From a phage, in sequence record PX068454.1: a stretch of 64,000 bases of DNA, one strand, 5' to 3'. This document shows positions 1-36,510 of the stretch, one piece after another (position 1 is the first letter of the stretch; the number at the start of each line of letters is the position of its first letter). A model generated the notes under the pieces. The model did no database searches, was not told the origin of the DNA, and was given only the letters and a program-made list of their open reading frames with translations. Position numbers and translations under genes: made by a program.

Positions 1-124
1 GGCGGACGAAATGGGAATACTTCTCATTCTTATAACAATTCTCAAATATCAAGGCAGTGAGGCAAATTAATAGGTGAGGCCGTTCACACAGTGGCACAAC
101 ATTTGCAACCTATCTTGTGTGGAG

Positions 125-163
125 GAATGAGAATACCTATCATTGTGAGAACCATTATCATTA
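125..163. promoter_or_regulatory. operator-like motif (AATGAGAA..ATCATT / GAGAACCATTATCATT)
   Basis: Read directly; related copies at 11831-11857 and 11971-11987. Confidence 0.3.
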
Positions 164-454
164 CGGGCAATTTAACATAATACCCATTATGCGCACCACT
201 GGCGATACATACAGGGATTGATAACATGAGTTACTGTTTACGCATATAACAATTATATTTCTTACTATTTGTGTGGGATATAGTTAGCAACCAATAGATT
301 AGATATTGACCTGCAGACTTCTGACCGTCCAGACGTCTAAACGCCCACACACCAAGGGTTATACATACATTCCTGAATGTAAACAGGGCCGCAAAAATGC
401 TACCATACCAGTTTGTAAATTTTTCATGCAGCACTTGACAAAGAGGAGAAAAAC

Positions 455-565
455 TTGTCTGACACAATGTGACAAAATTGTCACTTTTGCCACTTTTACC
501 TTTGACACAATGTCACACAATATGCCATAATCTGACACCTTATACACTTTCGACACAATAACGAC
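455..565. repeat. cluster of GACACAAT(G) repeats with inverted repeat GTGACA-aaat-TGTCAC
   Basis: Four GACACAAT-like copies (461, 504, 534, 552) and palindrome at 469-484; no credible ORF. Confidence 0.5.
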
Positions 566-589
566 TGTTATTATTTCATGTTTCATTGT

Positions 590-660
590 TCACGTATAGA
601 CTATTCCCGCATAGACTGTTTACGCCTGGATAGTTTACACCTTGACAGTTTACACAAAGA
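590..660. repeat. direct repeats ATAGACT and (A)GTTTACAC
   Basis: gtttacgcc, agtttacacc, agtttacaca within 40 nt; further copies near 1048 and 1100. Confidence 0.45.
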
Positions 661-667
661 TGATAAG

Positions 668-910
668 CCATGACATTCGTTTGCATGATAACAATTAACA
701 AGTTAATAATATATGACATAATATAAAAGCAGGGCAACTATTAGCAGATCTATAGTTGCCTTGCTTGTTATGTCATGATTAACTAAATACAAGGCAACTA
801 TGATCTGATTAATAGATTGCAGACAAACTATCACGGGGGTGATGGTTACTGCTTTTATATTATGTCGCGACTCCGTCGCGCCATGCCATTCGTTTGCATA
901 GTTGCCTTAT
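668..910. repeat. direct and inverted repeat complex (candidate origin or packaging-site region)
   Basis: 20-nt direct repeat CCATG(A/C)CATTCGTTTGCAT at 668-687 and 881-900; inverted repeat GACATAATATAAAAGC (715-730) with GCTTTTATATTATGTC (851-866); palindrome around GCAGGGCAACTAT / ATAGTTGCCTTGC (730-765). Confidence 0.5.
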
Positions 911-1511
911 TGTTACAGGTAAAACAATTACATTATTAATTATTTCTTATCTTTCTCTTAGTCATCTAATGATTCCAGTCAGTATAGTAATGTACAGTAA
1001 ACATTAGACGACTAAAGATTTCTCTGTGTATAATAACTTATCGTGACAATTTCGAACTGTTTACGAAAAATGTTGACACCTGAGCTGATTTATGTTATGC
1101 AGTTTACACGAATAATTATTTTATGCAGGTATTGACTATTCCGTTATTCTGTGGTTGGAATAAATACTTTGCAGACTATAGAATGGCGTGCGTACGTGAA
1201 TTCTGAGATCTGGCGGCTATAGTTATACTCGATTTTTCGCGTAGAACACGCTTTCGATGCTGTGTAAGTGTATGACTTATAAAGGTTTTTAGTTGTTGAC
1301 AAGATATTGGAGATGTGCATCAGGTTAAAATTTGTGCAATAGCGGCATTACGTGCACTTTTGGGAGAGAAAACGGGTAAAAATGGCCCTGCTACCACACA
1401 ATGAAAGATTATGCAATAGTTATTTTCCATGTATATTTGTACAGTATGTGGGATTGATGGCTAGTCAATTATTCCACTTGCCAGGTAGGGCCGTTTATGG
1501 TAGGAGAAGAG

Positions 1512-1543
1512 CAGACAAAAAGAAAGGGGCCTTTAAGCCCCTT
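1512..1543 (-). terminator. rho-independent terminator
   Basis: Hairpin GGGGC-N-GCCCC followed on minus strand by TTTCTTTTTGT, just downstream of CDS 1562-1981. Confidence 0.55.
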
Positions 1544-1561
1544 GATAATTCAGTTAAGAAA

Positions 1562-1981
1562 TTATAATGATTCGTATATTTCAAAAATCCGATTTGCCAG
1601 GTCGTTACGGTAGCGGAATTTTTCCTCACGTTTGATCATCAGATCTTTAAAGCCATATTCTTTAAGCACTTCATTAACTTTATGGCGGCACACCTTCATA
1701 TTATCTTGAGCGTCACCAATAAACTTGTTGCTGTGGTGCATTGCTTTAATTTCTTCTTCCAGGACCAGGGCAACTACCCGGACCGGATCAAGCTGGTAGG
1801 CGGTAACATCGATGCGGCATTGTAGACGGCTTTTTACGTCTGCCACCGGATATACTGCAACCTCTTCCCCGTCAACATTGACAATAACTAGTTTACCATC
1901 GATTTCGAATCCTTTCGCCGCCGGACCGTGACAAAAAGCGTTATCAAAGCTACATGCCGGATTATTAGATTTAATGTTCAT
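1562..1981 (-). CDS. hypothetical protein (139 aa)
   Basis: ORF track; fits minus-strand operon; terminator downstream. Confidence 0.55.
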   Translation of the reverse strand: MNIKSNNPACSFDNAFCHGPAAKGFEIDGKLVIVNVDGEEVAVYPVADVKSRLQCRIDVTAYQLDPVRVVALVLEEEIKAMHHSNKFIGDAQDNMKVCRHKVNEVLKEYGFKDLMIKREEKFRYRNDLANRIFEIYESL

Positions 1982-2451: not shown

Positions 2452-2724
2452 TTACTTACGGCGGCAGAATTCAAGCGTTTTTAATTGATAATCTTCCTCA
2501 GCCTGGAGTACAACCGCCTCGATCATTTCGTTGGCATTGGTGAAGCCATACCCTTGAGCGAACTCATCCGCGCCACCTTCGTGATCATGTTCTGCGTTCA
2601 TCGCTTCCACAAAATGGAATTCAAGATTATTGAGGTAAGGGCTTGATGTTCCGTCCTCTTTTTCGATGAGATCCCAGATAGCATTAAAACGTGATTCAAC
2701 TTCTTGATTAATCCAGCTTGACAT
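2452..2724 (-). CDS. hypothetical acidic protein (90 aa)
   Basis: ORF track; preceded by promoter 2779-2807 and 5' UTR hairpin 2754-2767. Confidence 0.55.
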   Translation of the reverse strand: MSSWINQEVESRFNAIWDLIEKEDGTSSPYLNNLEFHFVEAMNAEHDHEGGADEFAQGYGFTNANEMIEAVVLQAEEDYQLKTLEFCRRK

Positions 2725-2778
2725 AATGTTTTCCTCTCTTCTGGTTGTTGTGTGGGCACTTTTGCCCCTTCAAGATAA

Positions 2779-2807
2779 ATAATATCCCACCACCTGGCAG
2801 ATGTCAA
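2779..2807 (-). promoter_or_regulatory. sigma70-type promoter TTGACA-17-TATTAT
   Basis: Hexamers read on minus strand; GC hairpin at 2754-2767 in the predicted 5' UTR. Confidence 0.6.
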
Positions 2808-11816: not shown

Positions 11817-11915
11817 ATGGGCGCTGCATAAAATGAGAACGGTTATCATTATCATTTAAAAATTTATGCAAAAAATCCTTGCTTTCTTTGTCCTGTGTGA
11901 TACTATAATAACAAG

Positions 11916-36231: not shown

Positions 36232-36510
36232 TTAGGCAACTGTCATTTTACATTCTTGAAATTTTAGCACAAGACGGTGATTGTGTCTAGTGTCTAAAAA
36301 GATTTTTTCAACCATCAGGCACACGGTGTAACCGTCCATCTTGTTGACAACAAAATCCTCAGGGTGAGGGAGAATGTCCCCAGGATTGGGGAAACATAAC
36401 CCGCTCAAGAAGGCATCATCGGTGGTGGACCTGATGGATTTCCACACACTATCTGCCTGGACACTCTCACCAACATAATATACACTACCACATGCCTTCA
36501 TCATAGTCAA
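36232..36510 (-). CDS. hypothetical protein (92 aa)
   Basis: ORF track. Confidence 0.5.
   Translation of the reverse strand: MTMMKACGSVYYVGESVQADSVWKSIRSTTDDAFLSGLCFPNPGDILPHPEDFVVNKMDGYTVCLMVEKIFLDTRHNHRLVLKFQECKMTVA

Follow-up and report, generated by a model that had tools for sequence, protein, structure and literature searches.

Architecture of the gene-free left end of a Vequintavirus chromosome, a probable concatemer-junction and terminus control region

Introduction

The DNA analyzed here, a stretch of 64,000 nt from phage record PX068454.1 that we call the window, covers the leftmost 64 kb of a Vequintavirus chromosome (an rV5-like E. coli myovirus of ~136 kb). Positions 1–1560 of the window are gene-free and rich in repeats; from left to right they hold a terminal repeat, two arrays of short head-to-tail repeats, a large palindromic cassette and a conserved spacer that runs up to the terminator of a leftward operon. 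We conclude that this region is probably the left physical end of a chromosome packaged in the manner of phage T7, and that it serves as a concatemer-junction and terminus control region of which the arrays and the cassette are functional modules. rV5-like phages are common components of E. coli phage cocktails and belong to the BASEL reference collection, and their origin, packaging signal and end-processing sites have hitherto been undefined. The rV5 paper of 2013 marks the area as 'non-coding', records that bidirectional terminators were expected there and none were found, and states that the origin could not be placed from skew (PMC3606486). The terminal repeat is already known for the genus; published reports state its length alone, without the arrays, the cassette or the conserved spacer. 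An earlier, sequence-only reading of the window had proposed that the left end is an origin, a packaging site or an operator array, and its claims are taken up below where the results bear on them.

Results

The window begins with the left copy of a direct terminal repeat

A BLAST search with positions 1–1600 against phage records returned 120 matching records, all Vequintavirus, with 87–98% identity. A more sensitive search with 460–1560 returned the same 120 records and none outside the genus Vequintavirus, and an anchor scan of IMG/VR added two loci only. We defined the anatomy of the region by comparison with 18 relatives, and measured percent identity of 1–459 across 16 relatives. The features at the left end and at the inner repeat boundary are as follows.

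1–459, no strand: left copy of the direct terminal repeat (DTR), from the Gotham annotation, the right end of ECP2303 and the lengths in the literature
380–459, no strand: inner end of the DTR (TTTGTAAATTT ... CTTGACAAAGAGGAGAAAAACTTGTC), a candidate recognition element for the boundary cut, from alignment with the DTR end of KPP-1
456–464, no strand: 9-bp palindrome TGTC-T-GACA, whose centre is the first base after the DTR, read from the sequence

The Gotham record annotates a repeat_region at 1..459 and 136567..137025, and the first base of this repeat is window base 1; window 1–459 and Gotham's annotated repeat were aligned base for base. The records of ECP2309, YN3 and Gotham all begin at window base 1, each with a second copy of the repeat elsewhere. 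The ECP2303 record (PP261279) begins at about window 460, and its final 459 nt are 100% identical to window 1–459. Presence of the repeat at two ends was thus found in relatives (Gotham and ECP2303), the window holding the left copy only. These lengths agree with the literature on the genus, which describes terminal repeats of 458–459 bp and a fixed packaging start, including terminal redundancies of 458 bp in the vequintaviruses EdH4 and HdK5 (Korf et al.; PMC6563267). Klebsiella phage KPP-1 has a 514-bp repeat classed as T7-type by PhageTerm (PMC9862379).

The DTR is 95.3% identical across the 16 relatives, and its boundaries are kept in both position and sequence. In all relatives the repeat starts at GCTGCCA|GGCGGACG and ends at ...AAAACTTGTC|TGACA. 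Its last 20 nt are unchanged in 16 of 18 relatives, with a single substitution each in FFH2 and APCEc02, and the boundary in KPP-1 is homologous. The CTTGTC|TGACA junction, which the 9-bp palindrome spans, is kept in 18/18 relatives. By comparison with these records, base 1 is the predicted physical terminus and 459/460 the predicted inner boundary of the repeat. Of the three functions suggested by the sequence-only reading, the packaging site or terminus is the one borne out, by the starts of the Gotham repeat and of the ECP2309 and YN3 records at base 1, by the identical copy in ECP2303 and by the literature.

In circularly permuted records the repeat lies within a gene-free gap of ~2.5 kb between rightward right-arm genes and leftward left-arm genes. 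In replicating concatemers, the repeat and both of its flanks form the junction where the right-arm operon, transcribed rightward, meets the left-arm operon, transcribed leftward. Relatives have ~1 kb of gene-free DNA to the left of the repeat (for example L008 4200–4541, outside the window), with a C-rich top strand and a variable length. This right-arm flank carries repeats of its own: CCTGAAGAG in three to four copies, and CCT(G/A)(T/C)CAGGAG(Y)GCT in one to three copies abutting the outer repeat boundary.

Two further observations concern the records. The repeat of ECP2303 is 100% identical to that of the window while the adjoining unique sequence is 96% identical only, which suggests that the repeat is exchanged by recombination or homogenised independently of its flank. 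Separately, 18 MG0656xx records named 'Campylobacter phage' (A147, A135, C5, D1 and others; host given as Campylobacter jejuni) are 93–97% identical to E. coli vequintaviruses here. Their host label is doubtful, and contamination or mislabelling is possible.

Two oriented arrays of short repeats lie just inside the boundary

The DTR is followed by two arrays on the plus strand.

460–565, plus strand: head-to-tail array of GACAY units (GACACAAT type) starting at the DTR boundary, from recurrence in 18 relatives
589–663, plus strand: tandem array of TTYAC units (TGTTTACRY), 15-nt period, ~5 units, from a repeat search and the relatives

The sequence-only reading had noticed repeats at 455–565 with a GTGACA/TGTCAC palindrome, and these were found as GACACAAT copies at 461, 504 and 552 with the palindrome GTGACA-AAAT-TGTCAC at 469–484, inside the GACAY array. 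Its second set of repeats, at 590–660, proved to be the 15-nt-period tandem array. It had missed two points: that the first 459 bases are a terminal repeat, and that the GACACAAT array begins exactly at the inner boundary of that repeat.

Among the 18 relatives, the GACAY array has two to seven forward copies and almost none in reverse, with a modal spacing of 9–11 nt. Its first unit abuts the boundary in 18/18 relatives, though the arrays are unalignable between many of them. The TTYAC array has one to ten forward copies and no reverse copies, with a modal spacing of 15–16 nt. Copy number in both is hypervariable; motif and orientation are constant in all 18. The motifs are also confined to this region. 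Forward copies of GACACAAT occur in the 64 kb at 461, 504 and 552 only, and the four reverse copies elsewhere are isolated and mostly lie within genes. The GTTTACAC form of the second motif occurs at 633, 648 and 1102, with TGTTTACGA at 1058 and TGTTTACG at 235 inside the DTR, so that of the further copies that the sequence-only reading had placed near 1048 and 1100, the latter stands (GTTTACAC at 1102) and the former turns out to be TGTTTACGA at 1058. In the 64 kb, GACACAAT and GTTTACAC have no forward copy outside this region, and GGCAACTAT has no copy outside it on either strand.

The repeat motifs are not seen again at other promoters of the 64 kb. A genome-wide operator or promoter motif was rejected on this ground, and the operator array of the sequence-only reading is weakly supported. 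A sigma-70-like promoter at 502–531 within the GACAY array scores 11/12 and is absent in many relatives. Host response-regulator boxes were also considered for TGTTTAC. PhoP-type sites (TGTTTA-N5-TGTTTA) and the sites of OmpR and CpxR have a period of 10–11 nt, and the array period of 15–16 nt rules them out by spacing.

One of the isolated reverse copies of GACACAAT, at 36287 on the minus strand, lies in a promoter-like context (TAGACA ... TGCTAAAAT) near a change of GC-skew sign at ~37 kb. The region around it is probably a divergent promoter region between two left-arm transcription units.

A near-invariant palindromic cassette is bounded by 20-nt direct repeats

To the right of the arrays lies a set of palindromic elements between two direct repeats.

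667–686, plus strand: 20-nt direct repeat, copy 1 (GCCATGACATTCGTTTGCAT), kept in all relatives
687–714, no strand: AT-rich variable mini-array (AACAATTARCAAGTTAA); 681–720 is 80% AT
715–866, no strand: near-invariant palindromic cassette, closed by an 18-nt, 100% complementary inverted repeat (715–732 / 849–866)
727–741 / 752–766, minus strand: hairpin with a 15-bp stem, terminator-like for leftward transcription, followed by TTTTATATTAT (726–715)
731–741 plus, 752–762 minus, 791–801 plus and 898–908 minus: four AAGGCAACTAT sites, with a degenerate copy at ~821–831
826–866, plus strand: hairpin (826–847) with a T-rich tail, terminator-like for rightward transcription, from a terminator scan
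880–899, plus strand: 20-nt direct repeat, copy 2; 867–899 is 99.6% identical across relatives

Three elements of this set had been seen in the sequence-only reading and are confirmed here, like its other repeats, at the positions that it gave or a few bases away: the 20-nt direct repeat, whose copies at 667–686 and 880–899 are 95% identical to each other; the long-range inverted repeat of 715–732 and 849–866; and the palindrome of 727–741 and 752–766.

The cassette is 98.2% identical across relatives. For comparison, third codon positions in neighbouring genes are 84–92% identical, and first and second positions 93–99% (mostly 97–99%). The predicted fold of 710–875 has a free energy of -72.7 kcal/mol (z = -11.4; none of 200 shuffles was as stable), and it is equally stable on either strand and as DNA. 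A hairpin followed by a T run is present on each strand, in a gene layout that is convergent. The Murica record annotates a terminator at the position equivalent to the 727–766 hairpin, whose loop of 10 exceeds the limits of the terminator scan. The rightward module at 826–866 contains a core, ACCATCACC (minus strand, 838–846), that is common to KPP-1 and Phapecoctavirus.

Three of the AAGGCAACTAT sites lie inside the cassette and the fourth just outside it, at 898–908. Allowing up to one mismatch, AAGGCAACTAT has seven matches against 1.4 expected, a number reached in none of 100 shuffles. Good copies all lie in 731–908, and there is no further exact copy in the 64 kb.

The DNA just upstream of the cassette is variable. 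The mini-array at 687–714 is expanded in some relatives, or carries GC-rich hairpin or terminator-like inserts, and several relatives have extra canonical terminator hairpins at this place, which fits a need to stop convergent transcription at the junction. One insert, a GC-rich, hairpin-forming sequence of 33–35 nt (ACACCCTTGAGACGAGGGCYATGCTCCCGAGTTTA), is absent from the window and was found in YP-6 (L004, 6645–6680), SYGMH1 (L010, 2786–2821) and LL12 (L015, 2767–2800). It occupies two sites, at about window 690 and 770: after GCATGATA in YP-6 and SYGMH1, and inside the apical loop of the cassette in LL12. The insert is always at TA with an apparent TA duplication, and looks like a tiny mobile or recombination-borne insertion. 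A reading of the cassette itself as a mobile element (a miniature inverted-repeat transposable element) is not supported: 5,426 E. coli genomes do not contain the cassette, the window has one copy of it only, its inverted repeats are not directly bordered by the 20-nt direct repeats, and a relative that has lost it, FV3, is better explained by a deletion between these direct repeats.

Related left ends share the layout beyond the genus

KPP-1 (genus Mydovirus, of the same subfamily) has the same layout, with convergent gene blocks and the repeat in the gap between them. The last ~80 nt of its repeat are homologous to window 380–459, with the boundary at the equivalent position. One CTTGACAGTTTACAC unit and a GACACAATAAC motif occur at its left end, as does a palindrome-rich cassette (z = -12.3) that is closed by a perfect 21-nt long-range inverted repeat and carries its own repeated palindromic site, TGATAA-N4-TTATCA. 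The left end of Phapecoctavirus Mt1B1_P17 (Stephanstirmvirinae) is 1.24 kb of gene-free, repeat-dense DNA with an analogous cassette and the ACCATCACC hairpin. Mt1B1_P17 also carries the first left-arm gene of the window, which encodes a 139-aa protein (~91% aa identity), as its first gene ~1 kb from the left end, which suggests that the subfamilies have exchanged genes at the ends of their chromosomes. The three left ends (Vequintavirus, KPP-1 and Phapecoctavirus) have 15 9-mers in common, against 0.7 expected. The shared 9-mers and layout indicate that the architecture is older than the genus; the arrays are genus-specific.

A further motif links the three ends as a side observation. The half-site ATGA(G/T)AA / TT(A/C)TCAT occurs at 21, 127, 155, 660 and 685, and also at 11833; within 1–1560 this is five observed against 0.7 expected (P ~8e-4). 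It matches TGATAA-N4-TTATCA, which KPP-1 carries four times at its left end, and a similar site, ATGAGAATAATTATCATT, which Phapecoctavirus likewise carries four times at its own. At window 11833 the palindrome is complete (ATGAGAACGGTTATCAT).

A conserved gene-free spacer separates the cassette from the leftward operon

The remainder of the region contains the following features.

900–1520, no strand: core gene-free spacer, in all relatives, virtually indel-free, 92.7% identity
906–960, no strand: extremely AT-rich tract; 921–960 is 85% AT
946–1025, no strand: strongly conserved block, 97.7% identity, with a 14-nt inverted repeat (958–971 / 1002–1015)
1087–1185, no strand: strongly conserved block, 96.3% identity, with TTATGCAG repeats, one GTTTACAC unit and an invariant TTGACT
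1514–1543, minus strand: intrinsic terminator of the leftward operon, annotated in Gotham
1562–1981, minus strand: first left-arm gene, 139 aa, phrog_12277, unknown function, missing in ~25% of relatives

Conservation of 900–1520 is modestly above the synonymous baseline (92.7% versus 84–92%). Segments 921–960 and 681–720 rank within the top 0.3–1.3% of the window by AT content, 921–960 being in the top 0.3%. The block at 946–1025 has no unusual RNA fold. A structured noncoding RNA across 900–1520 was rejected, with no window of z below -2.8 and no Rfam match; indeed, no Rfam match was found anywhere in 1–1560 at E values up to 1. A weak match to the Clostridium-PBP RNA at 2722–2795 (minus strand; 28.8 bits against a gathering threshold of 94.4, E = 0.48), in a coding region, is almost certainly due to chance. 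GATC sites are mildly depleted in 1–1560, with 3 against ~7.5 expected from the window average of ~4.8 per kb.

Consistent with the sequence-only reading, which found no convincing open reading frame (ORF) in ~1.5 kb, the longest ORF of the gene-free left end is 78 aa, none of its small ORFs is conserved, and a search of PHROGs gave no match for any of them. Possible hidden genes at 1352–1567 and 1144–1320 were rejected because of stop codons in most relatives. We also rejected a 37-aa ORF at 894–1007, which is always open: it starts with TTG, lacks a Shine-Dalgarno sequence, and its changes are non-synonymous almost without exception. The terminator that the same reading had placed at the edge of the leftward operon was found as a hairpin at 1543–1524 on the minus strand with a T run to ~1514, and 11-mers flanking it are common to Phapecoctavirus. 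The gene at 1562–1981 is accessory within Vequintavirus.

Discussion

A probable concatemer-junction and terminus control region

The comparisons show that the arrays and the cassette are genuine features confined to this region, and that selection acts on their motif, orientation and position. We consider it probable that positions 1–1560 are the left physical end of a chromosome packaged T7-style, and that they act as a concatemer-junction and terminus control region with the arrays and cassette as functional modules. The termini map here, and the repeats are kept among relatives in motif and orientation, not in copy number; the sequence-only reading would have had to be given up had the termini lain elsewhere and the repeats been unconserved.

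We propose the following mechanism. Terminase would cut or nick at base 1 and at 459/460, guided by the inner-end element (CTTGACAAAGAGGAGAAAAACTTGTC), which is conserved across genera, and by the boundary palindrome. The cut site would most likely be determined by this conserved inner end. The repeat would then be duplicated by strand-displacement synthesis, as proposed for T7. Positions 1–660 would constitute an end-processing and packaging zone, with the GACAY and TTYAC arrays as the counterpart of SRL, the array of T7. The GACAY units are spaced one helical turn apart in a single orientation, and the arrays may be phased sites for a packaging or end-processing protein (the terminase small subunit or an accessory factor), and the bound protein would mark the side of the repeat that is chromosome interior. 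Array copy number would be free to drift because a minimum of ~2 units would suffice.

We have lower confidence in the role of the cassette. It may be a protein-binding, hairpin-forming module with AAGGCAACTAT sites and AT-rich flanks that insulates the junction from two convergent transcription streams, with one terminator-like hairpin per strand, each at the far edge. Its extreme conservation, the repeated 11-mer and the AT-rich flanks leave room for an additional role, and the cassette may also serve as a replication start zone.

Several points weigh against this interpretation. One paper used PhageTerm on another vequintavirus and obtained a result that pointed to headful packaging, contradicting the reports of fixed ends; we regard this as the weaker result, but a dissent. 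The termini of the phage in the window are assigned from its relatives and the literature. KPP-1, which has a homologous DTR end, has no tandem array after the boundary, and hence the arrays cannot be a universal recognition element. V18 is without the TTYAC array, having a single stray match only, and strict GACAY units number just two in several relatives; the variation in the arrays fits neutral slippage as well as binding sites. FV3 is without 687–880 and keeps one 20-nt box, the only such state in the 120 records, so that either the cassette is non-essential or the FV3 record is a deletion variant. The FV3 state (L017, NC_019517, ~2726–2760) could most simply have arisen by recombination between the direct repeats, as a natural variant or an assembly collapse. 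Covariation in the cassette is not scorable at 98–99% identity, and the few variable positions in the 727–766 loop include none that compensate. The leftward operon is already served by its own terminator at 1514–1543. Lastly, to our knowledge the function of T7 SRL has not been established, and the analogy with T7 accordingly transfers architecture, not mechanism.

Alternative explanations

The alternatives considered here and the junction and terminus control region that we favour are not mutually exclusive. The first is a mostly passive buffer between convergent transcription units, in which the cassette is two intrinsic terminators, the arrays are neutral products of slippage or recombination beside a recombinogenic end, and the conservation of 900–1520 reflects the recent common ancestry of the genus. 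This explanation is possible, though on balance doubtful. It accounts for terminator-like hairpins with T tails on both strands, one of them annotated in Murica, and for the further canonical terminators inserted in some relatives, precisely where the rV5 paper expected bidirectional terminators; hypervariable array copy number, and a spacer identity (92.7%) that is only slightly above that of synonymous sites (84–92%), are also as it would have them. However, it does not account for the conservation of array motif, orientation and boundary start where the arrays are otherwise unalignable, for the fourth AAGGCAACTAT site outside the hairpins, or for the motifs common to different subfamilies. 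Moreover, perfect 18-nt arms and 98–99.6% identity over 715–899 go beyond the needs of a terminator, and the blocks at 946–1025 and 1087–1185 are constrained like coding positions.

A replication origin, the first of the functions named by the sequence-only reading, has points on both sides, and we judge it unlikely. Here the cassette and its direct repeats (667–899) would be the initiator module, the AT tracts at 681–720 and 906–960 would unwind, and the TTYAC units would be auxiliary iterons; the origin would fire early from a chromosome end, like the secondary origin of T7 near phiOL, a promoter-associated element that lies just right of the SRL array. Repetition of the 11-mer AAGGCAACTAT in both orientations, and nowhere else in the 64 kb, favours an origin, as do the two tracts, which are among the most AT-rich of the window and supply an adjacent AT-rich element, and the constraint on the cassette, which equals that on first and second codon positions. 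KPP-1 and Phapecoctavirus share the architecture with different site sequences, as expected under co-evolution with a binding protein; that the rV5 authors could not place an origin by skew also counts in its favour. By contrast, FV3 lacks the cassette and three of the four AAGGCAACTAT sites, and the TTYAC array is missing from V18. No initiator gene lies next to the region, as judged from the absence of a conserved ORF and of a PHROGs match, and neither a DnaA nor an integration host factor (IHF) site is conserved. GTTTACACA matches the DnaA-box consensus at 8/9 positions and is mostly GTTTACAT in relatives. The region has one true DnaA box, which is not conserved, so that DnaA boxes were rejected, and no IHF consensus was found. 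The 15–16-nt period of the TTYAC units is out of helical phase, unlike classical iterons; the GACAY spacing of 9–11 nt is in helical phase, with very short units. The GC-skew profile tracks transcription direction only. Finally, the replisome of the phage is T7-like (PolA and a gp4-like primase-helicase), and in T7 such a replisome is not known to need an iteron-binding initiator.

A noncoding RNA gene or an operator array is a third alternative, and a distinctly improbable one. A structured RNA of ~130 nt might run from an extended -10 element, TGACATAAT (714–722), to the hairpin and U tail at 826–862, or the repeats might be operators at which an early regulator controls promoters of the region. 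A promoter-like TTAACA-16-CATAAT with an upstream TG, the invariance of TGACATAAT in relatives, the very stable fold and the strong sigma-70-like promoter at 502–531 speak for it. The fold, however, is just as stable on the other strand and as DNA, and perfect Watson-Crick arms of 18 nt are typical of DNA palindromes; Rfam gave no match at E values up to 1, and none of the few variable positions is compensating. Neither the -35 region nor the 502–531 promoter is conserved, the motifs are absent from other promoters in the 64 kb, and there is no downstream gene to regulate.

An injection stop signal (iss) like that of T5, in which the repeats and palindromes would make the entering DNA pause at the membrane, is hardly credible and was rejected: the T5 iss is likewise described as untranslated and dense in repeats, inverted repeats and palindromes, but it is defined by eight ordered DnaA boxes where there is one non-conserved box here, and with no genes, and hence no distal pre-early genes, between the chromosome end and the repeats, a stop would deliver nothing to express. 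Vequintavirinae are markedly sensitive to the DNA intercalator daunorubicin, as are T5-like and Drexlerviridae phages (PMC13250531), a likeness to T5-like phages that would suit such a signal.

Implications

If processing occurs at base 1 and at 459/460 as proposed, these positions give annotators a guide to genome orientation. The division of the flank into invariant and dispensable elements indicates where engineers can alter the DNA, for rebooting or for payload insertion, and the GACAY array, the AAGGCAACTAT sites and the ACCATCACC hairpin are short targets for footprinting. The window phage and its relatives would be a second, unrelated phage lineage with boundary arrays like T7 SRL, which could help to settle the role of such arrays. 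A broader proposal, which we think quite unlikely as it stands, is that the cassette and boundary arrays are the cis-acting replication-start and packaging-entry module of all rV5-like phages (Vequintavirinae and Stephanstirmvirinae), read by a phage DNA-binding protein whose site co-evolves by genus. This protein would recognise AAGGCAACTAT here but TGATAA-N4-TTATCA in KPP-1, with ACCATCACC common to the three ends. If true, this combined replication and packaging module would be the first defined origin or pac element of a large, therapeutically used phage group.

Comparison with known systems

The T5 iss resembles the region described here in being untranslated, dense in repeats and palindromes, and near the left end. 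It differs in its ordered DnaA boxes and distal pre-early genes, neither of which is present here, and in sitting inside a 10-kb repeat, whereas the elements here lie partly in and partly just inside a short one. Iteron origins (lambda ori and RSF1010 oriV) likewise have direct repeats, AT-rich tracts and a large palindrome in series. By contrast, their period is ~20–22 nt rather than 15–16 nt, the region here has no initiator gene nearby and no conserved host-factor sites, and its elements are dispensable in FV3 and V18.

Packaging sites offer another parallel in layout. The R sites of lambda cosB and the hexamer repeats of P1 pac are short, oriented repeats that lie close together to the same side of a fixed cleavage position, as do the arrays here. 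The ends of cos and pac systems are cohesive or generated by headful packaging, unlike the DTR here, and any binding of terminase to the arrays is putative.

The T7 concatemer junction has a short, exact direct terminal repeat with fixed ends, followed by repeats: on the T7 sequence, we checked that the 160-bp repeat is followed by ~12 head-to-tail CCTAAAG units at 175–340, spaced 12–13 nt apart. The other flank of the T7 repeat carries its own short-repeat array (SRR), and repeats are likewise seen on that flank in relatives of the window phage, and transcription runs into the junction in both; in T7, pausing of RNA polymerase at the junction has been linked to packaging. T7 differs in being a 40-kb podovirus with its own RNA polymerase, whereas the phage here is a 136-kb myovirus with promoters of the host RNA polymerase type. 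Its repeat is 160 bp rather than 459 bp and has no sequence similarity to that of the window, and it lacks a second array in series, a large palindromic cassette and a 600-bp conserved spacer, all of which are present here. With these differences, the arrays and cassette fall within a known kind, the T7-type terminal repeat with junction repeats.

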